The notes beneath the pieces are model-generated. The model was given only the letters and a program-made list of their open reading frames with translations, had not been told where the DNA came from and did no database searches. From NCBI GenBank assembly GCA_023379805.1, contig JAMCPI010000017.1, forward strand, positions 19,977 to 83,976: 64,000 nucleotides of DNA, written 5' to 3'. Both the position numbers and the translations under genes were made by a program. Positions 3,006-27,919 of this stretch are shown piece after piece (within the stretch, counting starts at the first letter, position 1; each line of letters opens with the position of its first letter). The stretch comes from Nitrososphaerota archaeon. GTDB taxonomy: Archaea; Thermoproteota; Nitrososphaeria; Nitrososphaerales; JACPRH01.

Positions 3006-3320
3006 TCACGTGGCGCCAAGTTGTCTGAGGAATTGCTTTCCTAAGCTGGTGAGTTGGTAGAATGAGTAGCCGTCTTTTCCTTCGATTTTTCTGTAGTGGT
3101 TCTCCACAAGTCCCGCTTTCATCAGGATCTTAAGGTGGTGGGTGAGGGTGCTGGTGTTCATAGGTTTGACTTGCAGCAGAAGCTCTTTGAAGGAGAGCTC
3201 TCCTTTTTCGGCTAGCATCACCGCTAAACCTTGTCTTGAAGGTTCGCTGAGGGCTTCTATCATGGCTCTTGCCTCCTGCGGAATCTTCTCTTTGTACTTG
3301 GTTATTATTGCGGAACCCAT
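3006..3320 (-). CDS. ArsR-family winged-helix transcriptional regulator
   Basis: 104 aa. The pattern ALSEPSRQGLAVMLAEKGELSFKELLLQV...STLTHHLKILMKAGLVE...YYQLT is the typical ArsR/SmtB HTH plus wing. Confidence 0.8.
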   Translation of the reverse strand: MGSAIITKYKEKIPQEARAMIEALSEPSRQGLAVMLAEKGELSFKELLLQVKPMNTSTLTHHLKILMKAGLVENHYRKIEGKDGYSFYQLTSLGKQFLRQLGAT

Positions 3321-4047: not shown

Positions 4048-4247
4048 AGAAGTAAGAGGGTTCCGCTGTGTCTCTTGCTGAAGTAGAAGACAGCGAGAGC
4101 GTCTAGTGCGTTTATGGCGCAGTGTATTGATGCTGTTACCGCTGCGTTATTCTTAGATGCGTTGGCTGCGTATTTCGCGACTTCCAGTATTTCTTCTGCT
4201 TTCTACAGATAGTTCTTGTAGAGTCCTTTATCGACTGGCCTTACCAT
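4005..4247 (-). pseudogene. Decayed HEPN-like toxin remnant downstream of the MNT gene
   Basis: The ATG at 4247 overlaps the MNT 3' end by 20 nt. The reading is MVRPVDKGLYKNYL, then an in-frame TAG (4205-4203), then KAEEILEVAKYAANASKNNAAVTASIHCAINALDALAVFYFSKRHSG. This is helical and HEPN-like, but no R-x4-6-H motif is present. The 3' end runs into the convergent gene 3451-4047. Confidence 0.35.
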
Positions 4248-4854
4248 GCTTAATGATCTCCTTTAGATCTTTTCCAGAGACGAGTGTATAGGATTCTAGG
4301 ATTGATTTTTCAAGGTCTCTATCACTTTCTTGAATGAAACGTTCTTTGCTCATAATCAGAGGTGATGGTGCAAAACCAAACTTGGAGGTGGTGGCGTCGC
4401 TTGCTCTTGAGACACATTCATTCGCGAATTCCCTGTCCTCTGCGATTACAAGGAGATCAATGTCGCTGGATTCCTTTTCCATGCCCTTTGCTACGCTTCC
4501 GAAGATTGCGACCGTGGAAATTCTTTTGTCTTTGTTGAAGAAGGGTTTGATTGTCGATATTAGAGCGCCTACTGTGTTCTCCTCCGCTCGGAATAATGGT
4601 TCGATCACCGATTTCAAAATGTAGCTCTCCTCGTTCAAACTTACTTGGTAGGCTCTTCCGACAGGTTGAAGCCTTACTACACCTCTTTTCTCAAGCGTCT
4701 TGAGCACCTTTGATGTCTCAGGGTGTGAAAGACCAGCAGTCTTGGCCAGTTCTCTTATTGTGAAAATCTTGCCTCTGAAGCGGAGAAGCGTTTTGAGTAC
4801 ACGAAAACTAGCCTTGCTACCTAGAATCTCGATTGTGTAGTTATGCAGTGCCAC
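4228..4854 (-). CDS. Winged-helix + minimal nucleotidyltransferase (MNT-type antitoxin-like)
   Basis: The N-terminal wHTH is FTIRELAKTAGLSHPETSKVLKTLEKRGVV. The NTase signature is FGSVAKGMEKESSDIDLLV (GS-x9-DxD). Confidence 0.8.
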   Translation of the reverse strand: MALHNYTIEILGSKASFRVLKTLLRFRGKIFTIRELAKTAGLSHPETSKVLKTLEKRGVVRLQPVGRAYQVSLNEESYILKSVIEPLFRAEENTVGALISTIKPFFNKDKRISTVAIFGSVAKGMEKESSDIDLLVIAEDREFANECVSRASDATTSKFGFAPSPLIMSKERFIQESDRDLEKSILESYTLVSGKDLKEIIKHGKASR

Positions 4855-10037: not shown

Positions 10038-10475
10038 TCACTCGATTAAGTAATCGCTTAACGAAGTGACAAGATGGGTATCCTTAGCTTTCGTATTTAG
10101 ATCGTCGTCCGCCGTAACCAATTTGCATCCGATATCCTCGGCTAGCTCTAGGTAAATTGCATCGTAGACCGTTATACCTAGTCTCTTGGCTGTTAACGTG
10201 GCCTTTGCGGTGGATTTAGATGACGGAGCGATGAAGGCTATGTCAAGTTGAAACAGCGCCTCAATATTACGTTCAAGGTCAACTTCAGTTATGTCTGATC
10301 TGTAGCGTAATGCATTGGCAACTTCGTAAATTATTAGCGCAGGTGCATAAAGCGTTAATCTACCCTCGATATGCTGATCTCTCAGAGTTAAAGCATCTTC
10401 AGAGTCCTGTTCAGGGACAAACCATTTTACCGCTACTGAAGCGTCAAGGACTAGGCTCTGCGACTCTGACGCCAT
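10038..10475 (-). CDS. vapC: PIN-domain ribonuclease toxin VapC
   Basis: 145 aa. It shows LVLDASVAVKW (the first acidic PIN residue), then ...YEVANAL..., then ...YDAIYLELA...LVTADDDL. Confidence 0.85.
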   Translation of the reverse strand: MASESQSLVLDASVAVKWFVPEQDSEDALTLRDQHIEGRLTLYAPALIIYEVANALRYRSDITEVDLERNIEALFQLDIAFIAPSSKSTAKATLTAKRLGITVYDAIYLELAEDIGCKLVTADDDLNTKAKDTHLVTSLSDYLIE

Positions 10476-10735
10476 TTCCGAATTACCTTGACGCTGGACC
10501 AGTCCTCAACCCGTTTAAGCTTCGCCCTATTACTGTCTATGACTTCGGCCGCCGTCTTCATCCTATCAATGTCGCGTATTCTTTTCTGATTTAGGCGTCC
10601 TCCTCCTTGTTGAGCCCAAGCCTTGAAGGCCATAGAGGCAGCTTGCCCTATCTTCAATCCCTCCTTGGACGCTCTGGACTTTAGTCTCCTGTAAGCCTCC
10701 TCGTCAACACCCTTTATCACTACATTCTCGCCCAA
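10451..10735 (-). CDS. vapB: RHH-type antitoxin (VapB-like), cognate to VapC 10038-10475
   Basis: This is the C-terminal 94 codons of the 196-aa track ORF. The reading ENVVIKGVDEEAYRRLKSRASKEGLKIGQAASMAFKAWA is a ribbon-helix-helix pattern. It overlaps vapC by 25 nt. The proposed internal TTG (10735) or GTG (10720) start is not proven. Confidence 0.5.
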   Translation of the reverse strand: MGENVVIKGVDEEAYRRLKSRASKEGLKIGQAASMAFKAWAQQGGGRLNQKRIRDIDRMKTAAEVIDSNRAKLKRVEDWSSVKVIRKWRQSRRA

Positions 10736-11041
10736 CGTCTGTGACCATGTGAAAACCGGCGCCTCAAGGTATAAAAAGTTATACTTCGCCGGTAGCTCGT
10801 AGCATAATGTTTTCTCGGCTGATTCTGAACGTGGATCGACGGGCCAAAACAGGAACAATTCGGACTCAAAGGGAATTATGTTACAATCTAGTCTTCCTTC
10901 TCCTTTGCCTTTTTTGAGAAGGTGGTACGCGAACTCCATTAGTGTGACGCTAGACATGTATTTCTCTGCATCCTCGATGTTTTTGAGCCACTTTAGAAAC
11001 TCCGGCTCAGAGAGAACATTGGTGTCAAGGAGTAATTTCAA
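10736..11041 (-). pseudogene. N-terminal PIN-domain fragment fused in-frame to the vapB-like ORF
   Basis: MKLLLDTNVLSE...SSVTLMEFAYHLLKK...IIPFESELF looks like the first half of a PIN domain. The distal acidic residues are missing, and the frame runs straight into the RHH segment. Confidence 0.4.
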
Positions 11042-11059
11042 CGATAATTCCTTCGAATC

Positions 11060-11431
11060 CTATCGAGTCTTTTTTACAGCGTGGGCGAATCCTTTTCTGC
11101 TCTCTTTCACCGTTTCTTCGATGTCTTCGCAGAGACCGGCTATTTCTTTAATGAACTCGTCCTCTTTCATAACTACGAATTTTCCCCGGGGTTCTTCAAA
11201 AAAGACTATTTTGTCCCCAGGCTTTATCTTGAGCTTCTTTCTAACCTCTTTCGGAATAGTCGCCTGGTACTTCTGCGTCACAGTTGACATATTACTCATT
11301 ACCTCTTTCAATCGGGTCTTTTCTTCAGCGGGCTCAGACTTCCTCAAAATTACTCTGTCGCCCTCAAGTTCGAAAACAACCCTTGAGCCCGGATAAATCC
11401 TAAGCGCCTCTCTAAACACTTTGGGAATCAC
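11060..11431 (-). CDS. AbrB/SpoVT-family antitoxin with two swapped-hairpin domains
   Basis: There are two repeats of the motif: VIPKVFREALRIYPGSRVVFELEGDRVILRK and ATIPKEVRKKLKIKPGDKIVFFEEPRGKFVVMK. GTG start. It lies directly upstream of the PIN fragment. Confidence 0.7.
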   Translation of the reverse strand: MIPKVFREALRIYPGSRVVFELEGDRVILRKSEPAEEKTRLKEVMSNMSTVTQKYQATIPKEVRKKLKIKPGDKIVFFEEPRGKFVVMKEDEFIKEIAGLCEDIEETVKESRKGFAHAVKKTR

Positions 11432-11646
11432 GACCTGTCCCTTAGGCCCACATTCCTCTTCTCTTCAACCAAATACGTAAGACTCCAAGTTGACCAAAAG
11501 CATAACCCCGGATTTATATCTTGACACAACAAGTTCTAACATTCTTAGGGAACAAGTCCAAGTAAACAAACAGCAAACAAGCTAGCCTAACTTAGCTTAG
11601 CTAAATCTAGATTAGATTAACCTGTGTTGACAAGATTGATTAGAAC

Positions 11647-11817
11647 ATGCCGGATAGATGCAAGATCTGCGGCGAGCGGGTTGAGACTAACCATGAAGCT
11701 CACCTAAGACGTGTACACGGTATATACGACATCAAACTAGCAGTCGACCAATACTTCGAGCGGACATCATCATCAACCAAGCCTTACCGCCTTAAAGAAA
11801 CCAAGCTTCAGCACTAG
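11647..11817 (+). CDS. Small C2H2-type zinc-finger protein (56 aa; below the ORF-track cutoff)
   Basis: The ATG at 11647 gives MPDRCKICGERVETNHEAHLRRVHGIYD... (C-x2-C-x10-H-x4-H). The stop is TAG 11815-11817. Confidence 0.45.
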   Translation: MPDRCKICGERVETNHEAHLRRVHGIYDIKLAVDQYFERTSSSTKPYRLKETKLQH

Positions 11818-12067
11818 TTAGTTCACTCACCAACTATACACTGGCGCGCAACCGCTCGAACCGGAACAGTAGTAGCAACAGCGACCACGAAAATACCGGC
11901 TGTCAAGAGTATAGCCTCTCACAACTTAACTTGATTAAACTCAACTTAATCTAACTGAAAAATAACCTTCCAACAACATATCTTACAAAGCGTCATCACA
12001 CCTAATCAAATCTCTATAAAAACCAATATAATTTTTGAGTTAACATCCCATCACATAATAAAAAACG

Positions 12068-12100
12068 GTTGTATGGAGGCCGTCTTACCGTACTTTATAT
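12068..12100 (+). promoter_or_regulatory. Class I promoter box + TATA (paralog 1)
   Basis: GTTGTATGGAGGCCGTCTTACCGTACTTTATAT. 25 of 33 positions are invariant with 14478-14510 and 16954-16986. It ends 26 nt before ATG 12126. Confidence 0.6.
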
Positions 12101-12125
12101 CTTTTCAAAATACAGCGTCTATGAA

Positions 12126-14372
12126 ATGTTAGGTCATAAACTAACTCTATATATTGTACTAACCACTCTCTGCTTCAGCGCCTTTATTCCAGCGCTGGTA
12201 TACGCAGCACCACTAGGAATCACCGCTAAAGACTGGGAGCACACCAACGGCGGCTCATGGGCAGGCAACTACAGCCCACAAACCACCATCACCAAAGACA
12301 ACGTGAACAACCTCGAAGTGAAATGGATCTTTCCCGTCTCACAAAGGGCGCTTGGTCCGAAAGGCATCCAAGGTACAGGTCTCATCGAAGGAGCCAACAC
12401 TCCTCCGATTGTGAGAAACGGCAAGGTCTACGCCCAGACCAACTGGCTAAGACTCTACTCACTGGACGCAGCTTCAGGCAAACTGCTCTGGATGTACGAC
12501 TACTCCGCAAACGTCACCGCACTAACCACAAGGGATCCAGTCGTCATCGGCGGCAGCACCCATTCACACGGCTTCAGATACTGGGAGGCAGGCAACATGA
12601 TTCTGCAAGGCGGCCCACTCTGCGACTTCTACGGAGTCGACGCGGACACCGGCAAGCAGAAGTTCTACGTAGCAGATCTCTGCAACAACATTCCGGGAAG
12701 CATCTACAAGTACGTATCAATCATACCTGGCGGCGGACACGAAATCGCCACCTACGAGAAGGGTAAGCAGTTCATCATCTACTTCCCCGGCGGACGCGGC
12801 GGCGCAATTCTCGCAGGCAGAGCATTCGTCGCAGGAATCAACATGGACAACTACCAAACAGCGTGGCGGGTCTACCTGAACCCGCCTTACGACAAAGCAG
12901 AACCCGACTGGGCACTACAATACTGTGATGTAGGCTACTTCCCATACGGCGTATCCTGCAGTGACGTAGTCAAAATGTTTGGACAAGACGCCCTCAAGTA
13001 CGACTGGCAGAAGGAGCCGGGTAAGCCAATGAACGGCTTCAACGGCGTAAGCAGCGGCTGGGGTCAACCAGTAGTCGACGAAGACACAGGAACAGTCTAC
13101 ATCCCAAGTACAGGGAACCAAAGCCCCTACACAAACGTAACATTCAGGCCCGGACCGAACCTCTACGGAAGCACGATCTTAGCAATCGATCTGAACAAGG
13201 GCTCAATAAAATGGTGGCTACAACCACTTTCACACGATCCTTGGGACTATGACTGCAACTGGGGAGGCATCCTCGCAGACGTCCCAGGAACAGGCAAAGT
13301 CTTCGCCAAAGGCTGCAAAGAAGGCATCCTCTACGTAATGAACGCTGCAACCGGCAAACCGGTCTACTGGGTCGACATCATGAAAGACAACCCGCAACCA
13401 ATGGGAAAGAGAACCATAGAAGTACCTGACCCAAGCACCACCACACCTAAAGTCTTGTACAAGGACTCAACAGGAAAAGAATACAGCTACACCTTCGCCG
13501 AATGGATAAAGCTACCTTGGCCAGGATACCCAGACAACCCACAGATCCCTATGAACCCGATAATACTCAACGGCGCATTCCAAATCGACATGTCCTATGA
13601 CCCAGCCACCCAAACACTCTTCCACTACTACGCGTCAGGTGGACAAAGCATACTGAAGCAGAACCCGATCATCGAAGGAAAAGGCATCTGGAGCTCCAAA
13701 ACCGACAACCCACACAACACTACAATCGTAGCCCGAGACATAACAACAGGCAAAATCAAATGGGAGATACCCCCACTACCCTACAACGTCAGAGGACACC
13801 TACTCATAACAGGCGGAATGGTAGTCAGCCCATTGACAGACGGCTACATCCGATTCTACGACGAATCCACCGGCAAAACCCTACGTGAAATGAACCTCGG
13901 CTCCACACTCGTAACCGGAGTCACCACCGGACAAGACTCTAAAGGAGACCAGAAGATATTCGGCATCATCGGACAAACCACACAGATAGGCATAGTCGAA
14001 CCAGGCACCGTATTCGCACTCGGCCTATCCAGCAACAACGCAGGAGGCGGCGCAACCCCACAAACAACCACAGTCACCACAACCGCAACCACCACAACCA
14101 CAACAGTAAGCACCTCAGCTACAACAGTCACAACAACTGCACCGGCTAAAACCGTAACCACGACAAGCGCCACAACCGTCACCGCAACACAATCAGCTCA
14201 AACACAGACAAAGACTACAACAATCACCTCAAGCGCACCAGCACAAACCACCACCGTAACATCATCAATCACACAAAACACCGGACTACCATCGGAAGTC
14301 ACCTACGGAGCGGTCGGAGTAGCAGTAATAGCTCTGATTGCAGCTGCAGCACTGGCGATGCGGAAAAAGTAG
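12126..14372 (+). CDS. Secreted PQQ-dehydrogenase-like beta-propeller, Thr-rich stalk, C-terminal TM anchor (paralog 1, most divergent)
   Basis: The start is moved from 12069 to ATG 12126, because 12068-12100 is the promoter box shared with paralogs 2 and 3. The signal peptide ends ...FIPALVYAAP. Motifs present: NYSPQTTITKDNVNNLEVKWIFP, HGFRYWE, TGNQSPYTNVTFRPGPNLYGSTILAIDLNKGSIKWWLQPLSHDPWDYDCNW. The tail is GLPSEVTYGAVGVAVIALIAAAALAMRKK. Confidence 0.85.
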   Translation: MLGHKLTLYIVLTTLCFSAFIPALVYAAPLGITAKDWEHTNGGSWAGNYSPQTTITKDNVNNLEVKWIFPVSQRALGPKGIQGTGLIEGANTPPIVRNGKVYAQTNWLRLYSLDAASGKLLWMYDYSANVTALTTRDPVVIGGSTHSHGFRYWEAGNMILQGGPLCDFYGVDADTGKQKFYVADLCNNIPGSIYKYVSIIPGGGHEIATYEKGKQFIIYFPGGRGGAILAGRAFVAGINMDNYQTAWRVYLNPPYDKAEPDWALQYCDVGYFPYGVSCSDVVKMFGQDALKYDWQKEPGKPMNGFNGVSSGWGQPVVDEDTGTVYIPSTGNQSPYTNVTFRPGPNLYGSTILAIDLNKGSIKWWLQPLSHDPWDYDCNWGGILADVPGTGKVFAKGCKEGILYVMNAATGKPVYWVDIMKDNPQPMGKRTIEVPDPSTTTPKVLYKDSTGKEYSYTFAEWIKLPWPGYPDNPQIPMNPIILNGAFQIDMSYDPATQTLFHYYASGGQSILKQNPIIEGKGIWSSKTDNPHNTTIVARDITTGKIKWEIPPLPYNVRGHLLITGGMVVSPLTDGYIRFYDESTGKTLREMNLGSTLVTGVTTGQDSKGDQKIFGIIGQTTQIGIVEPGTVFALGLSSNNAGGGATPQTTTVTTTATTTTTTVSTSATTVTTTAPAKTVTTTSATTVTATQSAQTQTKTTTITSSAPAQTTTVTSSITQNTGLPSEVTYGAVGVAVIALIAAAALAMRKK

Positions 14373-14390
14373 GAGATACCAATCGCAGTA

Positions 14391-14427
14391 GACGATCCTG
14401 AACAAGGATCGTCCTCTCGCATTTTTT
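14391..14427 (+). terminator. Conserved hairpin + T-tract (paralog 1)
   Basis: GACGATCCT (14391-14399), loop gaaca, AGGATCGTC (14405-14413), then TTTTTT at 14422-14427. Confidence 0.6.
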
Positions 14428-14477
14428 ATCACTCCCAACTCAATAGCTGCTCAAGGCTTCTTTAGAGCAGGCAAATA

Positions 14478-14510
14478 GTCGTATGGAGACCATCTTACCC
14501 CACCTTATAA
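14478..14510 (+). promoter_or_regulatory. Class I promoter box + TATA (paralog 2)
   Basis: GTCGTATGGAGACCATCTTACCCCACCTTATAA. It contains ATGG-aga-CCAT dyad symmetry and ends 28 nt before ATG 14538. Confidence 0.6.
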
Positions 14511-14537
14511 CGAACTAAAAGAACCAAAAACCTGAAG

Positions 14538-16840
14538 ATGTTATCGAGCAAATATTGGATAACTAACTGTATATTACTTACCGTACTAACATTCAGCACA
14601 TTCGCACCTATACTAGCATACGCAGCACCCCTAGCAACTTCTGACAAGAACTGGCTGAACATGAACGGGAACACCTGGGCATGGAACTACAGCCCGGAGA
14701 CACAGATCAACAAGGATAACGTGAAGAACCTTGAAGTGAAATGGATATTCCCAATAACTAGCATAGCTCAAGCTGGCCCGAAAGGCTATGTATCACTTCA
14801 GCCTGGAGACGGTTCAAGCACACCGCCTATCGTCAGAAACGGCAAAGTCTACATCACGACCAATTACCAGATGATTATTGCACTAGACGGTAAAACAGGC
14901 AAGCAGCTGTGGAAAAACAGCTACGACATAAACCTCACTCAAGCAGTTCAGCGACTACCCTTAACCCCCGCAACCTTCGGCGGAGTACACAACCACGGCT
15001 TCAGATACTGGGAAACCGGAAACGCGCTCATCAACCGCGGCATAGCATGCGACTTCTACGGAGTTGACGCGGACACCGGCAAAACATCATTCTGGGTCCA
15101 AGACCTATGCAAAGACATCCCAGGCAACCTATACAAGTACAACACCGTCTACGCAGGCGCCAAATCCGGCAGCGTCGGAATATACGAGAAAGGTCACCAG
15201 TTCATCTACGTACTCTCAGGCGCAGTACACTCAAGCCTCTCACCCGCAGGCGATGGAAGACATGTCACAATGGGCATCGACACTACAACAAAGAACGTCA
15301 TATGGAGAGTCTTCAGCGCCCCACCCCAAGACGTTCCAACCAAGGACTGGGCACTCCAAGAATGCAGCATAGGATACTTCCAGACACACCCATGCAGCGA
15401 TGTAGCAGCCAAGAACCGAGCCGGGTTAGAATGGGACTGGGCATTACCCGACGCAGCACCAGTCAAGTGGGCTGGCGTAACCGCTAACTGGGGCCAGCTT
15501 GTCGTCGACGAAGACACCGGAATAGTCTACACTAATACAGGCAACCAGGGACCATACTCAAACATGTCAATGACACCTGGACCAAGACTCTACGGTTCAA
15601 CCATAATGGCCATCGACGTGAACGCAGGCAAACGCATATGGTGGCTACAACCCTTCCCACATGATCCCTATGATTATGACTGCAACTGGAGCGGAATACT
15701 AGCTGATGTTAAGGGCTAGGTAAAGTCTACATGAAGGGATGCAAGGAAGGCATTCTGTATGCAATGGACGCTAAGACAGGTAAGCCGGTGTGGACAGCGG
15801 ACGTAGTAAAGGAACAGGTAACATGGGGACAGATCCAAGCTGCCGCAGCCGAACCCCAGCCGAAAGGCATCCGGGCATATCAGCCAGATCCATATAGCTT
15901 CCACGATATGCGTGAGTGGAACTGGATCAGCTACCCAGCCGCAGCCCCAGGCCAAGCCGGCGAGCGCTGCAACCTTCCCTGCGGTCTATATCCGCACTGG
16001 TCAAACGGACTCTTCGGAACAGACCTCTCATACGATCCGGATACCAACACGCTATTCCAATACGCATCTGGACAACAGGTAGCCTTGCTTAAAGAATTCG
16101 GAATGAAGGATGGCGCAAGCCTCATGAGCACCAAAGGATACTCAATATCTAACTCAACCATAGTAGCCCGCGACGCAGCCACTGGCAACGTCAAGTGGAC
16201 ATGGTTCTACAAGTTCAGCACCCAGCGCAGCCACCTAGTTGTAACCAGTGACATGCTTCTTACAGGCTTCACAGACGGCTACATGCGCTTCTTCGACAAA
16301 AGCTCAGGCAAACTCCTCCGCGAAATGAACATCGGCACCCACATGGTGAACGGCTTCACCACAGGCCAAGACTCAGACGGCAAACAGAAACTATTCGGAG
16401 TTATAGGAGTAGGGGACGCAACCGCAGCCCGAGTATATCCAAGCCCAACAGCAGGAGGTGCAGTAATCGCACTAGGACTCTCAGAAACAGCCGGAGGCGG
16501 CGCAGCCCAAACCACCACAGTCACAACCACCTCAGCCACAACAATCACAACCGCAACCACCAGCACCATAACTACAACATCAGCCACAACAGTTACCAGC
16601 GCAACCACTAACACCGTAACCACAACAAGCGCCACAACCGTCACAGCAACACAATCAGCTCAAACACAAACTAAGACAACCACCGCAACGGTTACCTCCA
16701 ATGCGCCAGCTCAAACCACAACAGTAACCTCACAGGTCACTCAAACCACCGGACTACCCTCAGAAGTCACCTATGCAGCAGTCGGCATAGCTGTAATAGC
16801 TATCGCAGGCGCAGCATTCCTAGCAATGCGGAAGAAGTAG
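14538..16840 (+). pseudogene. PQQ-dehydrogenase-like paralog 2, interrupted by a 1-nt frameshift in a G-run
   Basis: ORFs 14538-15719 and 15731-16840 are the N- and C-halves of one paralog. At 15711-15722, aagGGGctaggt has three Gs. A fourth G would read K-G-L-G-K-V-Y-M-K-G-C-K-E-G, matching the family consensus. This could be a true pseudogene, a sequencing error or a slippage site. Confidence 0.6.
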
Positions 16841-16861
16841 ATAGAAACAACAGTAGAAGAA

Positions 16862-16898
16862 GACGATCCTTACAAAGGATCGTCACTTCAAATTTTTT
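16862..16898 (+). terminator. Conserved hairpin + T-tract (paralog 2)
   Basis: GACGATCCT (16862-16870) pairs with AGGATCGTC (16876-16884), followed by TTTTTT at 16893-16898. Confidence 0.6.
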
Positions 16899-16953
16899 CT
16901 CTGCCTAATAAAAGAGATTGTTCGATTTAAGTAGAATCATTTTAAATTATTTG

Positions 16954-16986
16954 GTCGTATGGATACCGTCTTACCCTACCTTATAA
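16954..16986 (+). promoter_or_regulatory. Class I promoter box + TATA (paralog 3)
   Basis: GTCGTATGGATACCGTCTTACCCTACCTTATAA. It ends 26 nt before ATG 17012. Confidence 0.6.
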
Positions 16987-17011
16987 CCCGCGAACCGAAG
17001 CACTGCTCGAA

Positions 17012-19225
17012 ATGTTATCAAGCAAATCTTGGATAACTAACTGTATAATACTTGTCTTATTGACGTTCAGCACATTCGCAACATCACTAGCATACGCAGC
17101 ACCCCTAGCTAACACCGAGAAGGACTGGCAGTACGTCGGCGGAAACTCTTGGGGTTGGCACTACGGCCCACAAACACAGATCAACAAGAACAACGTCGAC
17201 CAGCTCGAAGTAAAATGGCTCTTCCCGATAGGCGGCCAATCGTCGGCGCCCACAGGAATAAAAGCCATACCCGGAATCAGCGACGGAACAGGCACACCCC
17301 CAATAGTCAGAGACGGATCAGTATACGTATTGAACGATTGGGGAACCATGTACGCTGTAGATGCCGGGACGGGCAAACAAAAATGGTCACATGACTATGT
17401 CATCAACATGGACGAATTACGCAAGAAAATACCGGTGGCGCTCGGAGGACTCATGCATACCCATGGATTCAGATACTGGGAAGGTGGAGACGCACTACTA
17501 GCCTATGGTCTGGCGTGCGACTTCTACGGTGTTGACGCCAAGACCGGCAAGGAGAAGCTATGGGTCAAGGATATCTGTAAGGATGTCCCTGGAAACATCG
17601 GTCAATACAGACCTAGCCCATCCAACACCAATATCATCGGAACCTACGAGAAGGGACGCCAATTCATCATTGTCCTGCCAAGCAGGATTCACAGCAACGT
17701 CGCAGAAGTAGCTCCACAGGAATCTAGACACGTCACAATGGGCATAAGCATGGACGCGCCGTACAAAGTATTATGGCGAGTCTTCAGCTCACCACCTCAA
17801 GACGTTCCAACTAAGGACTGGGCTCTACAAGAGTGTAGCATCGGTTTCTTCCGAGAAATACCCTGCAGCGAAGTTGCAAAGGTGAACCAGAAAGGCCTTG
17901 AATGGGACTGGTCGCTTCCGGAACAAAAGCCAGGATATTTCGCCGGTGTCACAGCCAACTGGGGTCAACCCATAGTTGACGAAGACACAGGCATCATCTA
18001 CACCAACACAGGCAACCAAGGACCATACTCAAACGTATCACTAACACCAGGACCACGCCTCTACGGCAGTACCATCATGGCTATCGATATGAATGCGGGC
18101 AAACGTGTCTGGTGGCTACAGCCATGGCCGCATGACTTCTACGACTACGACTGCAACTGGAGCGGAATACTTGCAGAAAGCTCAACCCTCGGCAAAGTCT
18201 ACACATACGGCTGCAAGGAAGGAAGGTACTTCGTGATGGACGCAGCTAATGGTAAACCGAAGCTGGTGGTCGATGTCCGTGGCGACCAGTTAGCTAGAGG
18301 ACAGATATCAGCAGATCCATTCAAAATGGTCTACCAACCAGATCCTAAGAGCTTCTCCGATATGAGAGAATTCAACTGGATCAGCTGGCCTGCTACAAAG
18401 CCGGGTGAGCAGGGTAAGTTCTGTACCTTGCCTTGCACAGTATATCCGAACTGGACCAACGGGATATTCCAGTCGGACAGAGCGTACGACCCTGAGACAC
18501 AGACATACATACTCTACGAAGGAGCCCTCTGGGCACGAGTATTAGCGGAGCACTCCTACTTCCCAGGTGAGCGTAACTACAACGGCGGAAACTTGTTCAC
18601 AACCCAGCGTTCTCAACCCGTCAACACCACGCTAGTTGCCAGAGACCTCGCAACCGGCAAGGTGAAGTGGACATGGTTCTACCAATACAGCTCGCAGCGT
18701 GCCGCTCCGATTGTATCAGGTGGCATGGTCATCACAGGCTGGCCAGACGGTCTCATGAGGTTCTTCGACAAGGACTCAGGCAAACTCATTCGCCAACTGA
18801 CAATCGGCTCACCGATAATAGTTCAACCTACAATCGGCAAAGACTCATCAGGCAATTCAAAGATATTCCTAGTCGCAGGTGCATCAGGCCCCATGGGAGC
18901 TGGAGATGCTAGATACGGAATGCAAGGGCTAACCAGAGTTCCAGGAACACTCATCGCCATAGGCCTCACAGAAAAGGCGGCGACAGAAATCAAAACAAGC
19001 ACAGTCACAACTACTCAGAGCACAACTCTCACAACAACCTCAGCAACCACTCAGACACAGACTACAACAGTCACCTCAAACGCACCAGCTCAGACACAGA
19101 CTACAACAGTAACCTCACAGGTTACTCAAACAACAGGTCTGCCTTCTGAAGTCACTTACGCGGCAGTCGGTATAGCTGTAATAGCCATCATCGCAGCAGC
19201 AGTACTCGTGATACGGAAGAAGTAG
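17012..19225 (+). CDS. Secreted PQQ-dehydrogenase-like beta-propeller with stalk and C-terminal anchor (paralog 3)
   Basis: 737 aa. The signal peptide ends ...FSTFATSLAYAAP. Motifs present: HGFRYWEGGDA, TGNQGPYSNVSLTPGPRLYGSTIMAIDMNAGKRVWWLQPWPHDFYDYDCNW. A Thr-rich linker is followed by the tail GLPSEVTYAAVGIAVIAIIAAAVLVIRKK. Confidence 0.9.
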   Translation: MLSSKSWITNCIILVLLTFSTFATSLAYAAPLANTEKDWQYVGGNSWGWHYGPQTQINKNNVDQLEVKWLFPIGGQSSAPTGIKAIPGISDGTGTPPIVRDGSVYVLNDWGTMYAVDAGTGKQKWSHDYVINMDELRKKIPVALGGLMHTHGFRYWEGGDALLAYGLACDFYGVDAKTGKEKLWVKDICKDVPGNIGQYRPSPSNTNIIGTYEKGRQFIIVLPSRIHSNVAEVAPQESRHVTMGISMDAPYKVLWRVFSSPPQDVPTKDWALQECSIGFFREIPCSEVAKVNQKGLEWDWSLPEQKPGYFAGVTANWGQPIVDEDTGIIYTNTGNQGPYSNVSLTPGPRLYGSTIMAIDMNAGKRVWWLQPWPHDFYDYDCNWSGILAESSTLGKVYTYGCKEGRYFVMDAANGKPKLVVDVRGDQLARGQISADPFKMVYQPDPKSFSDMREFNWISWPATKPGEQGKFCTLPCTVYPNWTNGIFQSDRAYDPETQTYILYEGALWARVLAEHSYFPGERNYNGGNLFTTQRSQPVNTTLVARDLATGKVKWTWFYQYSSQRAAPIVSGGMVITGWPDGLMRFFDKDSGKLIRQLTIGSPIIVQPTIGKDSSGNSKIFLVAGASGPMGAGDARYGMQGLTRVPGTLIAIGLTEKAATEIKTSTVTTTQSTTLTTTSATTQTQTTTVTSNAPAQTQTTTVTSQVTQTTGLPSEVTYAAVGIAVIAIIAAAVLVIRKK

Positions 19226-19236
19226 AAAAAGCAGAA

Positions 19237-19274
19237 GACGATCCTCACAAGATCGTCCTCCCCTTTCTTTTTTT
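19237..19274 (+). terminator. Conserved hairpin + T-tract (paralog 3)
   Basis: GACGATC (19237-19243) pairs with GATCGTC (19251-19257), followed by TTTCTTTTTTT at 19264-19274. Confidence 0.6.
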
Positions 19275-20284: not shown

Positions 20285-20299
20285 AAACTTTATATAAAT
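20285..20299 (+). promoter_or_regulatory. Class II promoter TATA region (paralog 4)
   Basis: AAACTTTATATAAAT lies 44 nt upstream of ATG 20329. The spacing and near-identical sequence match 22786-22800. The proximal GAAAATAACTTATGAAGAAT is also shared. Confidence 0.55.
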
Positions 20300-20328
20300 A
20301 GGATACAGATATTTTCTGAAAATAACTT

Positions 20329-22461
20329 ATGAAGAATAGTAGTAAGCATCAACCGACACTACTGTCTATGCTCGTAATTCTGGCATTCAGCACATTCATG
20401 CCAGCACTAGCCTTCGCAGCACCTACGGGAGACAACGGCAAAGACTGGATGAACACCAACGGCAACAGCTGGGCATGGAATTATAGTCCACAAACCCAGA
20501 TCAACAAGAACAACGTGCAGAACCTTGAAGTGAAATGGGTGTTCCCACTCGCATCCAAGGCTCTGGCGCCAGCAGGAATCCAAGCGGCCGGGATCGGTGA
20601 AGGAACAACAACGCCCCCTATCGTCAGAAACGGAATAGTCTACGTCATTACCAGCTTCATGAAGGCATACGCCATCGACGCAAAGACCGGCAAGCAGATC
20701 TGGACCAATGATTACAGCATCGACATAGAAGCAGCGAAGCAGAGGCTACCGTTAATGATCGCCGGATCCGTTCACAAGCACGGCTTCCAGTACTGGGAAA
20801 GCGGCGACGCGATAATCAACCACGGCTTAGCCTGTGACTTCTACGGCCTTGACGCCAAGACTGGCAAAGAGAAATTCCACGTCAACGATCTCTGCAAAGA
20901 CGTACCTGGATCGCTCTACAAGTATCTGGCACGTCGGCCCGGCGCAGAGCCTAGCATAGGAATCTATGAGAAAGGCCACCAATTCATCTACGTCCTAGCT
21001 GGTTACATGCACAGCACACTTTCAGCCCCAGATGCACGCCACGTCACAATGGGCATTGACATGGACAGCAAACAGATTAAATGGAGAGTCTTCAGTTCAC
21101 CACCACAAGATCAACTCAGCAAAGACTGGGCACTACAGGAGTGCGACATCGGATACTTCAGAACCACCTCCTGCAAAGATGTAGCAGCAGTAAACCAGAA
21201 AGGCTTAGAGTGGGACTTCGCGCTACCCAACGAAAAACCAAGCATGTGGGGTGGAGTGACAGCCAACTGGGGACAGGCAGTAATTGATGAAGACACAGGA
21301 ATAATGTATACTCAGACTGGCAATCAAGGACCGTATTCAAACATGACACTAGTACCAGGACCACGCCTCTACGGAAGCACCATAATGGCCATCGACCTGA
21401 ACCAAGGCAAACGTGTCTGGTGGCTACAGCCATTCCCACACGATCCATATGACTACGACTGCAACTGGAGTGGAATGTTGATCAACAGCAAAGCTCTGGG
21501 CAAAGTCTACGTCAAGGGCTGCAAGGAAGGCATCTTCTACGTGATAGATGCAAAGACAGGTCAACCAAAGTACAGCGTAGATGTGATTAAAGACCAAGTT
21601 GCAAGAGGACAAGTAAGCGCAGCTGCAGCTAAATCTCCGCCTGACGGCATCCGAGCATACATGCCTGATCCAAAGAGCTACCATGACATGAGGGAGTGGA
21701 ACTGGATCAGCTATCCAGCCACTAAGCCAGGTGAGAAAGGAGAGCACTTCACGCTACCTGCATCGATATATCCACACTTCCAGAACGGCATTTTCCAGAC
21801 AGACATGTCCTACGATCCTGAAACAGAAACAATGATCTACTACGAAGGCGCACTCCAAGTAGACGTATTATCTGAACGCCCCTACATACAAGGCGCAGAT
21901 CTCTTCGTAGTCAAGGGATATCCGAAAGCCAATACTACCATAGTAGCGAGGGACATAACCACCGGCAAGGTGAAGTGGACTTGGTTCTATCAACTCAGCA
22001 ACCAGAGAGCAGCCATGGTCGTATCTGGCGGCACAGTCTTCTCCGGGTTTACTGACGGCACGATGAAGTTCTTCAACAAAGACACAGGTGCAGATCTTGC
22101 TAAGATAAACGTCGGAGCACCAGTTCTCGTCGAACCAACAATCGGTACAGACTCAGATGGCAACTCAAAGATATTCGCAGTAGTCGGATCTACATCGATT
22201 TCAGTAGGACCACAGTACGGAGACCCCGGGCCACAAATACCCGGAACACTCATCGCCCTCGGACTGAGAGAGACACCAGTAGCTGAAGTCAAGGTCACAA
22301 CAGTCACAACCAGCACGACAATCACCACTACTCAAGCAGTTACAACCACCCAGTCGATCACAGGAACAAGCGGATTACCAGCAGAAATAACCTACGCGGC
22401 AGTTGCAGTAGCAATAATCGTCAGCATCGCCGCAGCAGTATTAGCAATGCAGAAGAAATAA
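20329..22461 (+). CDS. Secreted PQQ-dehydrogenase-like beta-propeller with stalk and C-terminal anchor (paralog 4)
   Basis: 710 aa. The signal peptide ends ...FSTFMPALAFAAP. Motifs present: HGFQYWESGDA, PHDPYDYDCNWSG. The stalk is short. The tail is GLPAEITYAAVAVAIIVSIAAAVLAMQKK. Confidence 0.9.
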   Translation: MKNSSKHQPTLLSMLVILAFSTFMPALAFAAPTGDNGKDWMNTNGNSWAWNYSPQTQINKNNVQNLEVKWVFPLASKALAPAGIQAAGIGEGTTTPPIVRNGIVYVITSFMKAYAIDAKTGKQIWTNDYSIDIEAAKQRLPLMIAGSVHKHGFQYWESGDAIINHGLACDFYGLDAKTGKEKFHVNDLCKDVPGSLYKYLARRPGAEPSIGIYEKGHQFIYVLAGYMHSTLSAPDARHVTMGIDMDSKQIKWRVFSSPPQDQLSKDWALQECDIGYFRTTSCKDVAAVNQKGLEWDFALPNEKPSMWGGVTANWGQAVIDEDTGIMYTQTGNQGPYSNMTLVPGPRLYGSTIMAIDLNQGKRVWWLQPFPHDPYDYDCNWSGMLINSKALGKVYVKGCKEGIFYVIDAKTGQPKYSVDVIKDQVARGQVSAAAAKSPPDGIRAYMPDPKSYHDMREWNWISYPATKPGEKGEHFTLPASIYPHFQNGIFQTDMSYDPETETMIYYEGALQVDVLSERPYIQGADLFVVKGYPKANTTIVARDITTGKVKWTWFYQLSNQRAAMVVSGGTVFSGFTDGTMKFFNKDTGADLAKINVGAPVLVEPTIGTDSDGNSKIFAVVGSTSISVGPQYGDPGPQIPGTLIALGLRETPVAEVKVTTVTTSTTITTTQAVTTTQSITGTSGLPAEITYAAVAVAIIVSIAAAVLAMQKK

Positions 22462-22474
22462 TAAGTAAAAAGGT

Positions 22475-22511
22475 AGACGATCCTTTAAGGATCGTCTTAC
22501 TCCTATTTTTT
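22475..22511 (+). terminator. Conserved hairpin + T-tract (paralog 4)
   Basis: AGACGATCC...GGATCGTCT (22475-22497), followed by TTTTTT at 22506-22511. Confidence 0.6.
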
Positions 22512-22785
22512 AGGAGATAAAATAGGTTCACAATTGTCCACCTTCTCGAATCAAATTTATCGAATTAACCATTAAAATGTTTCACGAACTCTATATTTCG
22601 ATTCGTCATTATCCTTGTTTAAGAATGGCTGATGCTCGCTACATTATTAGTTCATCCTTGCGCCGCCAGATAATTGTCTTGCCCTTTTCAAAAGAATGTC
22701 AATTCCTTCCATTGGCGACATCAATTCCCAACATATCTAAAATTCTTAATATGGATCGCCGAAAATAAGGTATATACTTCTTCGT

Positions 22786-22800
22786 AAAGTTTATATAAAA
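22786..22800 (+). promoter_or_regulatory. Class II promoter TATA region (paralog 5)
   Basis: AAAGTTTATATAAAA lies 44 nt upstream of ATG 22830. The proximal GAGAATAACTTATGAAGAAT is shared with paralog 4. Confidence 0.55.
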
Positions 22801-22829
22801 ATGCCAATTATAACTACCGAGAATAACTT

Positions 22830-25013
22830 ATGAAGAATGATAGTTATTATCGAGCAACACTAATGTCAATACTCGTAATCCTCGCATTCAGCACTTTCAC
22901 ACCAACACTCGCATTCGCAGCACCCCTCGCCAATAACGACAAAGACTGGCAGTACGTTAACGGTAACAGCTGGGCATGGAACTACAGTCCACAGACACAG
23001 ATCAACAAGGACAACGTCGGCAACCTTGAAGTCAAGTGGATATTCCCTCTTGGAAGCAAAGCGTTAGCGCCGGCAGGCATGCAGGCAATACAAGGGTTTG
23101 CTGAGGGCACAACCACCCCACCGGTTGTTAGAGATGGAACAGTCTTCGTCAACAGCAACTGGGGTAGAATGTACGCCGTTGACGCCGCAACAGGCAAACA
23201 GAAATGGACCTACGACTATGTGCTCAACTTCAGTGATGTACGCAAGAAAATACCCGTGGAAATGGGCGGCATCATACACGACCACGGCTTCAGATACTGG
23301 GAGTCCGGAGATGCACTACTCTCCTACGGTCTAGCCTGTGACTTCTACGGCGTAGATGCAAAGACTGGGAAACAAAAGTTCTGGGTCAAAGACCTCTGCC
23401 TAGATGTACCTGGAAACCTTGGCATATACAGACCTAGTCTAGCCAACAGCGCAGTCATAGGCACCTACGAAAAGGGCCGACAGTTCATCGTCGTGTTCCC
23501 AAGCAGAATCCACAGCAACGTAGCTCAGGTAGCACCGCGCGACTCGAGACACGTCACAATGGGCATCAGCATGGACGCACCATACAAAGTAATGTGGCGA
23601 GTCTACAGCTCTCCACCGCAGGATCAACCCGTCAAAGACTGGGCGATCGCAGAATGTAGCAGCGGTTACTTCCGAGACATACCCTGTACCGAGGCACTAG
23701 CGGCTAACCGCGCAGGACTCGAATGGGACTTCGCACTCCCCAATCAGCCAATCGGCTGGTACGGCGGAGTCACAGCAAACTGGGGTCAACCTGTAGTTGA
23801 CGAAGATACAGGCCTGCTCTACACCCAGACAGGCAACCAAGGACCATACTCCAACATGACACTAGCACCAGGACCAAGACTCTTCGGCAGCACCATAATG
23901 TCCATAGACATGAACGCAGGCAAACGCATCTGGTGGCTACAACCATTCCCCCATGACCCGTATGACTATGACTGCAACTGGAGCGGATTGCTCACAGAAA
24001 ACCCGACGCTTGGCAAGGTCTATGTGTACGGCTGCAAGGAAGGAAGATACTTCGCGATTGATGCAGCTACAGGTAAACCGAAGCTAACTGTCGATGTCCG
24101 TAAAGACCAGTTCGCAAGAGGACAGATCTCTAGCGACCCGTATAAACTCCTCTATGAGCCTGATCCAAGAAGCTACTACGACATGAGGGAATGGAACTGG
24201 ATAAGCTACCCCGCAAAGAAAGTAGGCGAGCAAGGCAAGTTCTGCACCCTACCCTGCACAGTGTACCCGGACTTCTATAATGGCATCTTCGCAACAGACA
24301 GAGCGATAGACCCGCAGACACAAACATACTACCTCCACGAAGACGCGTTGACAGCAAGAATTGACAAGGAACACTCTTACTTCCCAGGAGATGCAAACTA
24401 TGCTGCAGGCAACCTGTTCACCACCTCCAGACCTCTGCCTACCAATAGCACAATCGTCGCCAGAGACCTAGCCACTGGTAAAGTAAAGTGGGTATGGTTC
24501 TTCCCCTACAGTCACCAACGCGCAGCCCCAGTGGTCACCGGAGGCATGGTGTTCAGTGGCTTCACAGACGGATACCTACGCTTCCTAGACAAGGACTCAG
24601 GCAAAATGCTAAACGAGATCGTCGTCGGATCGCCTATCGTAGTCCAACCAACAATCGGCAAAGACTCTCAAGGCAACTCAAAGATATTCGCCATCGTCGG
24701 CGCAACCCGCCTCGCCGGGGCAGCTAACTTCGGACTAGGTGGACAAAGTGATGTACCCGGAACACTAATAGCTCTCGGACTATCCCAGAAAGTCGCAACC
24801 GGAACGACAACAACTGTTACTACCACTTCCGCCACAACTGTTACTAGCACATCAGCTACAACAGTAACCACAGCTGCACCAGCTCAAACTGTGACTTCAT
24901 CGGTCACACAAACCGCGACCACAGGTCTACCAGCAGAAGTCACCTACGGGGCAGTCGGAGTAGCAGTAATAGCTCTGATTGCAGCAGCAGTACTAGTAAT
25001 GCGTAAGAAGTAA
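22830..25013 (+). CDS. Secreted PQQ-dehydrogenase-like beta-propeller with stalk and C-terminal anchor (paralog 5)
   Basis: 727 aa. The body is closest to paralog 3 (shared blocks include IGTYEKGRQFI, SRHVTMGISMDAPYKV, GCKEGRYF). PHDPYDYDCNWSG is present. The tail is GLPAEVTYGAVGVAVIALIAAAVLVMRKK. Confidence 0.9.
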   Translation: MKNDSYYRATLMSILVILAFSTFTPTLAFAAPLANNDKDWQYVNGNSWAWNYSPQTQINKDNVGNLEVKWIFPLGSKALAPAGMQAIQGFAEGTTTPPVVRDGTVFVNSNWGRMYAVDAATGKQKWTYDYVLNFSDVRKKIPVEMGGIIHDHGFRYWESGDALLSYGLACDFYGVDAKTGKQKFWVKDLCLDVPGNLGIYRPSLANSAVIGTYEKGRQFIVVFPSRIHSNVAQVAPRDSRHVTMGISMDAPYKVMWRVYSSPPQDQPVKDWAIAECSSGYFRDIPCTEALAANRAGLEWDFALPNQPIGWYGGVTANWGQPVVDEDTGLLYTQTGNQGPYSNMTLAPGPRLFGSTIMSIDMNAGKRIWWLQPFPHDPYDYDCNWSGLLTENPTLGKVYVYGCKEGRYFAIDAATGKPKLTVDVRKDQFARGQISSDPYKLLYEPDPRSYYDMREWNWISYPAKKVGEQGKFCTLPCTVYPDFYNGIFATDRAIDPQTQTYYLHEDALTARIDKEHSYFPGDANYAAGNLFTTSRPLPTNSTIVARDLATGKVKWVWFFPYSHQRAAPVVTGGMVFSGFTDGYLRFLDKDSGKMLNEIVVGSPIVVQPTIGKDSQGNSKIFAIVGATRLAGAANFGLGGQSDVPGTLIALGLSQKVATGTTTTVTTTSATTVTSTSATTVTTAAPAQTVTSSVTQTATTGLPAEVTYGAVGVAVIALIAAAVLVMRKK

Positions 25014-25337: not shown

Positions 25338-25426
25338 TTATTTATGTTAAATTAGGATTATACAAGTTTGTAAATTGGAATTCGAAATATATACGGTACC
25401 AATTCATTTTGCAGAATACTTATATT
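25338..25426 (+). promoter_or_regulatory. Class III promoter (distal box + TATA) of paralog 6
   Basis: The distal box TTATTTATGTTAAATTAGGATTATAC (25338-25363) and the TATA element ACTTATATT (25418-25426) have identical 80-nt and 38-nt spacings to the paralog 7 upstream region (27831/27911/27949). Confidence 0.55.
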
Positions 25427-27830: not shown

Positions 27831-27919
27831 TTATTTATGCTAAATCGGGATTATACTGATCAATAAATTGTCTTCATAATAAGTACGATAATAACCACGT
27901 TTGTAGAAAGACTTATATT
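27831..27919 (+). promoter_or_regulatory. Class III promoter (distal box + TATA) of paralog 7
   Basis: TTATTTATGCTAAATCGGGATTATAC (27831-27856) and ACTTATATT (27911-27919). The spacing is identical to paralog 6. Confidence 0.55.

Follow-up and report, generated by a model that had tools for sequence, protein, structure and literature searches.

The window, as we call the whole 64,000-nt stretch of DNA analysed here, is 99.995% identical to contig JAMCWH010000017.1 of the Thaumarchaeota MAG GCA_023481325.1, and carries eight paralogous PQQ-dehydrogenase genes. Paralogues 1-3 encode PQQ beta-propeller dehydrogenases of ~740 aa (Pfam PF01011, E 1e-30 to 1e-36), and all three proteins combine a signal peptide with a Thr-rich linker and a membrane anchor at the C-terminus. 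Upstream of each of these three genes lies a conserved 22-nt sequence, which we refer to as the box, followed by a TATA element (Table 1); the box-less paralogues 4-8 are located at 20329, 22830, ~25456, 27931 and 45244. Relative to the otherwise identical contig of GCA_023481325.1, paralogue 2 has a 1-nt deletion at 15718 (GGGCTTAGG -> GGGCTAGG) which splits it into ORFs 14538-15719 and 15731-16840, and which may represent either an assembly variant or a fresh pseudogene.

Table 1. Genes, boxes, TATA elements and candidate 5' mRNA hairpins of paralogues 1-3, with positions in the window
Feature	Position	Strand	Details
Paralogue 1, secreted, C-terminally anchored PQQ-dependent dehydrogenase	12126..14372	+	starts MLGHK..; Pfam PF01011
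Paralogue 2, PQQ-dependent dehydrogenase	14538..16840	+	starts MLSSKYWITNC; interrupted in the window
Paralogue 3, PQQ-dependent dehydrogenase	17012..19225	+	starts MLSSKSWITNC; Pfam PF01011
22-nt conserved box, paralogue 1	12068..12089	+	GTTGTATGGAGGCCGTCTTACC; 35.1 bits, aligned with 19 other copies
22-nt conserved box, paralogue 2	14478..14499	+	GTCGTATGGAGACCATCTTACC; 36.8 bits
22-nt conserved box, paralogue 3	16954..16975	+	GTCGTATGGATACCGTCTTACC; 37.2 bits
TATA element, paralogue 1	12094..12100	+	TTTATAT; TTATA 27 nt after box start, 31 nt before ATG
TATA element, paralogue 2	14504..14510	+	CTTATAA; TTATA to ATG 33 nt
TATA element, paralogue 3	16980..16986	+	CTTATAA; TTATA to ATG 31 nt
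Candidate 5' mRNA hairpin, paralogue 1	12128..12145	+	GUUAG-N8-CUAAC; compensatory U-A to G-C
Candidate 5' mRNA hairpin, paralogue 2	14540..14563	+	GUUAUC-N12-GAUAAC
Candidate 5' mRNA hairpin, paralogue 3	17014..17037	+	GUUAUC-N12-GAUAAC

Several other elements recur in the cluster. A conserved, terminator-like hairpin (GACGATCC-loop-GGATCGTC) with a T-run behind it closely follows the stop codon in paralogues 1, 2 and 4 (14391-14413, 16862-16884 and 22476-22496), with a variant after paralogue 3 (19233-19261), and the hairpin occurs in a related MAG as well (L005 and L014). Paralogues 4 and 5 share a second class of promoter and 5' region (20285-20337 and 22786-22838), in which an A-rich BRE and a TATA element, together AAAsTTTATATAAA, are followed after ~38 nt by a conserved leader, GAAAATAACTT-ATG-AAG-AAT, so that their proteins start MKN..; this class is conserved in the related MAG (L005, at 4141 and 6539, both genes on the minus strand). 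Paralogues 6 and 7 have in common a third upstream element, TTATTTATGyTAAATyrGGATTATAC (25338-25363 and 27831-27856), which is placed ~75-120 nt ahead of the start codon. A hemerythrin-domain gene (Pfam PF01814, 19570-20067) is embedded in the cluster, between paralogues 3 and 4, and is 85% identical to one at the equivalent place in the related MAG (L005 4229-4723).

All eight paralogues, with or without the box, have an Asp-Tyr-Asp (DYD) motif around residue 375, a motif that has been associated with lanthanide-dependent methanol dehydrogenases (PMC7300363). As it is present in all of them, a distinction between lanthanide and calcium enzymes was rejected as the basis of the promoter classes.

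Conservation of the box in the window and in related genomes

The original prediction reported three related 33-nt sequences at 12068-12100, 14478-14510 and 16954-16986 on the forward strand. We recovered all three with the letters as quoted, and by direct count 25 of the 33 positions are invariant, as had been claimed. Pairwise identity among the three copies bears out the description of the surrounding intergenic DNA as unrelated: the 22-nt core is 88% identical, the 30 nt ahead of it 32% and the 18 nt that follow the TATA element 37%. The core consensus, GTyGTATrGAnnCCrTCTTACC, carries ~35 bits of information and has a bipartite (10+2+10) layout, with GTyGTATrGA and CCrTCTTACC separated by two variable nucleotides. 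Twelve of its positions are invariant in 18 aligned copies (G1, T2, G4, T5, A6, T7, C13, T16, T18, T19, A20 and C21), and variation is concentrated at positions 11-12, in the centre, and at positions 23-27, in the linker of 4-5 nt that joins the box to the TATA element. A variable centre together with a variable linker is the pattern expected of a bipartite protein site.

With three or fewer mismatches allowed, the core pattern GTYGTATGGANRCCRTCTTACC matches only the three boxes on either strand of the 64 kb, and it has no match in 100 dinucleotide-preserving shuffles. A position weight matrix built from 18 box sites likewise scored the three boxes at 35-37 bits and the next best match in the window at 9 bits, which bears out the absence of the box from paralogues 4-8.

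The original prediction proposed a genome-wide motif search. We scanned the genomes of 185,579 species (596 Gb) for the exact pattern GTNGTATGGANNCCNTCTTACC, which returned five matches. Four are real sites, all in a single Thaumarchaeota MAG (GCA_016190055.1, three contigs), where in each case the ATG of a PQQ-dehydrogenase gene follows after 25-27 nt; the remaining one falls within a Hymenobacter CDS, has no TATA element and was set aside as a chance match. A pattern scan of metagenomes yielded one new true site and three chance matches that lack a TATA element or gene. Further copies, among them a diverged one in GCA_053537455.1 (GTTGTATGTATTCCATATTAC), were obtained from the DNA of homologues found by protein search. 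In total there are 20 copies in at least eight assemblies or metagenomes, and every one is upstream of a PQQ-dehydrogenase gene, so that the box is limited to one gene family; all of the sites belong to one narrow thaumarchaeal lineage, and shared ancestry inflates the apparent sample size.

Matrix scores for these sites are bimodal: true sites score 18.6-37.9 bits and, chance pattern matches aside, no other sequence in 154 kb exceeds 13.2 bits. The four chance pattern matches reach 24-30 bits, as it was the core pattern itself that picked them out, and a 13-bit match at L004:6940 was treated as chance, as it has no gene downstream. The other promoters of the window and those of locus L017 lack the box. 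A box found ubiquitously at unrelated promoters would have pointed to a generic variant of the BRE/TATA region; the box is instead missing from all other promoters, whether of the window or of ~154 kb of related loci, and as nothing box-like stands at the promoters of a ribosomal-protein-rich locus from a related genome either, we rejected that reading.

Possession of the box goes together with the N-terminus of the encoded protein: all 20 genes starting ML(S/G) carry it, and none of nine paralogues with other N-termini (MKN.., MSN.., MSL..) does. Paralogues 1-3 had been predicted to form a co-regulated set; they remain members of such a set in our analysis, but one related MAG alone has at least eight PQQ-dehydrogenase genes bearing the box and the 5' segment that accompanies it (see below), and the set is not confined to three. 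We propose that every PQQ-dehydrogenase gene with this segment would belong to one regulon, apart from the paralogues with other promoters.

The edges of the conserved sequence are sharp. Among the 20 copies, mean pairwise identity is 83% in the box core but drops to 33% over the 30 nt that precede it; it is 36% for the 18 nt that follow the TATA element and 39% for the last 8 nt before the ATG, and information content is 2.0 bits at box position 1 as against 0.8 bits one base upstream. These values bear on whether the box could be functionless, a leftover of tandem duplication or a sequence kept similar by gene conversion. Paralogues 1-3 do stand in tandem with terminator hairpins in common, and mosaicism in the family shows that recombination occurs. 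However, the flanks and the 25-27 nt spacer between TATA and ATG are 33-39% identical, as expected of unrelated sequence, across at least eight assemblies, as against 83% for the box; gene conversion would not be expected to leave out the spacer; and box copies are found on four different contigs of one MAG. Because the box has been kept while the spacer within the same 60 nt was randomised, a conversion tract or recent duplication cannot explain it, and we regard a functionless box as highly improbable. On this comparison, the box is under selection rather than the product of recent duplication.

Promoter geometry and possible functions of the box

The distance from the start of the box to TTATA is 27 nt in 19 of the 20 copies and 28 nt in the other, and in all 20 there are 4-5 nt between the end of the box and the TATA element. 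The distance from TTATA to the ATG, by comparison, floats between 30 and 33 nt across the 20 copies; in the window, 25, 27 and 25 nt lie between the end of the 33-nt sequence and the ATG codons of paralogues 1, 2 and 3, respectively. With one distance rigid and the other floating, it is the spacing of box to TATA that is constrained, and not that of box to gene.

The BRE contacted by TFB spans 6-7 nt. In paralogue 1 the BRE position corresponds to 12088-12093, which is C-rich and variable, and the proximal end of the box (TTACC) abuts or overlaps this position. The 6 nt before the TATA element are C-rich and poorly conserved among box promoters in general (CCGTAC, CCCCAC, CCCTAC, CCACAT), where paralogues 4 and 5 and their relatives in the other MAG have the A-rich AAAsTTTATATAAA instead, and may make for a weak BRE, as judged by eye against the general archaeal consensus. 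The promoters of housekeeping genes were too heterogeneous to yield a BRE/TATA consensus for the lineage.

The archaeal TATA box is centred ~26-27 nt upstream of the transcription start. Given this usual distance, an interval of 30-33 nt between TTATA and the ATG places the predicted start 0-4 nt before the ATG, and the mRNAs of the box genes are predicted to be leaderless or nearly so. No Shine-Dalgarno-like sequence (GGAGG or GGTG) precedes the ATG of box genes, where GAArATG is found. This geometry is compatible with the leaderless or near-leaderless mRNAs suggested by the original prediction.

Internal symmetry in the box is marginal. The ATGG-n3-CC[AG]T dyad that had been pointed out is present, and extends to GGT-N3-AnGG/CCnT-N3-ACC, but it is weak and imperfect and its ATGG is not constant, being replaced by ATAG or ATGT in seven of the 20 copies. 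Centred on box position 11, the dyad forms 5.2 of 10 pairs on the 22-nt core (permutation P = 0.085) and, with one flanking base added post hoc, 5.8 of 11 pairs (P = 0.03). Direct-repeat structure within the box is not significant (P = 0.72).

We considered whether the box might act in transcribed form, either as an RNA hairpin (ATGG-n3-CCRT) or as the start of a uORF (ATG GAG ACC GTC TTA CC.., reading M-E-T-V-L-P). A 4-bp hairpin can indeed be drawn in it, and one gene caller began protein P0065 at the ATG inside the box (METILPLFI..). That codon is ATA in five of the 20 copies, however, and uORF lengths and frames differ among copies, on which grounds a uORF or leader peptide was rejected. 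The hairpin was rejected as well, as it shows no compensatory changes, is broken in eight of 72 cells, and lies in a region whose folding z-scores (+0.6 to +1.1) are no better than those of shuffles; a known structured RNA family was rejected for want of an Rfam match at E<=1 in 11500-17500. Nor is there a conserved promoter upstream of the box from which it could be transcribed. Action of the box as RNA or as a coding sequence accordingly seems to us very improbable.

It is very likely, on the evidence of sequence comparison, that the box has some promoter-proximal protein-binding function. The original prediction of a dedicated transcription-factor site is supported by cross-genome conservation, exclusivity to one gene family, sharp edges and rigid TATA phasing; that a protein binds, that it touches TBP/TFB, whether it raises or lowers expression and where transcription begins are all points that we infer. 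Under the mechanism that we favour, a dedicated, sequence-specific DNA-binding regulator would occupy the 22-nt box and contact TBP/TFB on the adjacent weak, C-rich BRE and TATA element, most likely recruiting them and so acting as an activator; transcription would then start 0-4 nt before the ATG to give a leaderless mRNA, and the PQQ-dehydrogenase genes with this 5' segment would form one regulon. The reading as an activator follows from the C-rich BRE position and from a site that abuts the BRE, as in the GvpE, TFB-RF1 and EarA systems. We consider it probable, if well short of assured, that the box is a cis-regulatory DNA site of this kind, at which an activator-type regulator docks next to BRE/TATA.

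The same geometry could also serve repression, with a regulator at -58..-37 overlapping the distal BRE and blocking TFB/TBP until a substrate or metal derepresses the gene. The proximal end of the box does reach the BRE position, occlusion of TFB fits the geometry nearly as well as activation does, and archaeal regulators of a single family are reported to repress or activate according to where their sites lie (TrmB family review, PMC4158304). Most of the box, however, is upstream of the region usually covered by TBP/TFB, a non-consensus BRE argues for a promoter that needs help rather than blocking, and simple occlusion would not need rigid TATA phasing. A repressor operator is thus an unlikely, although not far-fetched, interpretation.

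A further possibility is that the box is an extended core-promoter element read by a TFB or TBP variant, in which case the choice among promoter classes would be made by switching of general factors. Its fixed distance from TATA in 19 of 20 sites would suit such an element, and there is reported haloarchaeal precedent for regulation by general transcription factors (PMC2396416). Against this, the conserved block reaches ~27 nt upstream of TATA, well beyond a BRE of 6-7 nt, and it is the nucleotides next to TATA, those that a variant TFB would recognise, that vary. We consider this explanation less likely still than repression, and retain the dedicated activator as the preferred reading.

At the loci examined, no regulator gene was found consistently next to box genes. 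An AbrB/MazE-type gene (11060-11431) is beside box genes in two genomes, and was set aside as probably not the regulator, being part of VapBC-like toxin-antitoxin arrays. Such arrays (AbrB/MazE-type antitoxins with PIN toxins) flank the dehydrogenase cluster, at 10038-11431 on the minus strand of the window and at 4757-7928 of L001. An ArsR-like gene (3006-3320) and a MarR-nucleotidyltransferase gene (4228-4854) were rejected as they show no linkage to the box in other loci, and a PadR gene (L012) and a response regulator (L013) as each was seen at one locus. A small ORF of 56 aa (11647-11817, plus strand; MPDRCKICGERVETNHEAHLRRVH..) with a C2H2-like Cys/His pattern has a counterpart at L001 4124-4354 (minus strand), 84% conserved over 44 aa, and is directly upstream of a box gene in both genomes; compared with Pfam it gave only a sub-threshold match (zf-C2H2_4, E 0.19). 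That this C2H2-like ORF might encode the regulator of the box is speculative.

The 5' module and its wider significance

The box and the first ~17 codons of the gene together behave as a 5' module of ~110 bp (12068-12175, 14478-14590 and 16954-17065) that is independent of the enzyme body. When the mature domains are arranged in a neighbour-joining tree, genes with the box are interspersed with genes that lack it; for example, the protein of paralogue 3 is 75% identical to P0002, which has another promoter and N-terminus. When pairs of box and box-less relatives are compared at the DNA level (e.g. L017:9900-10100 and window 22730-22900), identity is near-random from -100 to ~+50 and reaches 75-80% beyond +60. 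Near-random 5' ends joined to bodies that are 75-80% identical suggest that the box resides in a ~110-bp module combined mosaically with enzyme bodies.

This mosaic raises the question of whether the box is itself a recombination site, at the upstream edge of a portable cassette that it moves between paralogues. Homology to the nearest box-less relatives begins only at ~+50, the upstream edge of conservation coincides with the box, and box genes are polyphyletic on the enzyme tree, all of which would fit such a site. On the other hand, the loci have no recombinase associated with them and the downstream edge of the cassette lacks a second site. Ordinary gene conversion, exchanging enzyme bodies between the conserved segments at the signal peptide and the C-terminus, accounts for the mosaic just as well; the fixed TATA phasing, moreover, points to transcription. 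We give a recombination site very little credence, and continue to read the box as a probable activator site.

The coding part of the module has a feature of its own. In the first ~26 nt of the coding region of the box genes there is an inverted repeat, GUUAUC-N8..15-GAUAAC, which begins at the G of AUG and occupies the same place in 20 genes. In a protein-guided codon alignment its six pairs form in 110 of 119 cells, as against 24-50% when the pairing is slid; paralogue 1 has the single compensatory double change (U-A to G-C), and in four genes with A-to-G changes in the stem a G.U pair is kept. The loop is 8, 12 or 15 nt long, and this variation argues against a rigid protein operator at the inverted repeat. 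Two features of codon usage also favour a hairpin: Leu2 is TTA in all 20 box genes, where TTA makes up 11% of the Leu codons in gene bodies, and where residues are conserved, the codons agree at 0.80-0.86 over codons 1-8 compared with 0.40-0.55 over the rest of the gene. Against a hairpin, its stem is of low stability (-4 to -6 kcal/mol, mean z -1.4) and there is just the one double change; from the 5' coding region aligned by MAFFT alone, RNAalifold predicted no structure, and on the protein-guided codon alignment the stem appears at -0.4 kcal/mol only. We regard the inverted repeat as a candidate 5'-terminal hairpin of the leaderless mRNA, and such a hairpin would explain the unusually conserved start of the signal peptide (MLS..K..IT).

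Taken together, these features allow a broader and decidedly more tentative proposal: that the box is the upstream third of a portable cassette of ~110 bp, comprising regulator site, TATA element, leaderless AUG, 5' hairpin and the signal-peptide start MLS..K..IT encoded by that hairpin, and that recombination has joined this cassette to many different PQQ-dehydrogenase bodies. In this way, subfamilies of the enzyme would have been shuffled between regulons, and control of transcription would be combined with control of leaderless translation or mRNA stability. We offer this as a possibility, and a rather doubtful one.

Expanded and clustered families of secreted PQQ-dehydrogenases are described for non-ammonia-oxidising Thaumarchaeota in two reports (PMC7300363, PMC10640624), where they are thought to be central to energy conservation and are counted with the genes that show the highest expression. 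The word "promoter" is absent from the text of PMC7300363, and the passages of PMC10640624 that deal with PQQ do not discuss regulation. The host lineage is uncultured, and for such a lineage the box can serve as a sequence-defined marker of a putative regulon. It divides the paralogues among promoter classes which do not follow the phylogeny of the enzymes, predicts which of them should rise and fall together in metatranscriptomes, and could be used as bait for the first specific transcription regulator of the lineage.

Relation to known archaeal regulator sites

A full-text literature search for the core sequence returned unrelated papers only. A site beside a weak BRE is a known archaeal theme, and the general principle is not new; what the comparison supports, as regards position, spacing and specificity, is that the box would be a new example of this known kind, a regulator site adjoining BRE/TATA.

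TrmB/TrmBL1, with its TGM, and regulators of the Ptr2/Lrp type are presented as dimeric, bacterial-type proteins that act on palindromes or pseudopalindromes near BRE/TATA, an upstream position being linked with activation (PMC4158304; Ptr2 via PMC2241852). The box differs from these sites in that its dyad symmetry is only marginal (P = 0.03-0.085), and no TrmB or Lrp gene was found linked to box loci. EarA of Methanococcus maripaludis has activator sites upstream of the BRE of the fla operon, and the requirement for it is bypassed by a change in the BRE (PMC5512572). The EarA sites resemble the box in being upstream of the BRE, with the need for EarA linked to BRE quality; they differ in being short repeated motifs of unrelated sequence that serve one operon.

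TFB-RF1 (PF1088) of Pyrococcus furiosus is an activator that recruits TFB from a site immediately upstream of a BRE that is weak (PMC5937170). The box, too, lies directly next to a BRE position that is C-rich and departs from the consensus and that, to judge from its letters, may bind TFB weakly. TFB-RF1, however, has a single characterised target operon and a site of other sequence, whereas the box has at least eight target genes in one genome.

The GvpE-responsive element of haloarchaea consists of 20 nt (8+4+8) adjoining the BRE and is found at gas-vesicle (gvp) promoters only, where any change in spacing abolishes activation (PMC2241852). It is made up of YGAAAYGA repeats, a sequence unrelated to that of the box, and belongs to Euryarchaeota with a known regulator, GvpE, whereas the box belongs to Thaumarchaeota. 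In architecture the two are alike: both are bipartite, of similar size (20 nt as 8+4+8, and 22 nt as 10+2+10) and directly upstream of the BRE, both have a constrained spacing to TATA, which is critical in the one and rigid in the other, and each is associated with one gene family.
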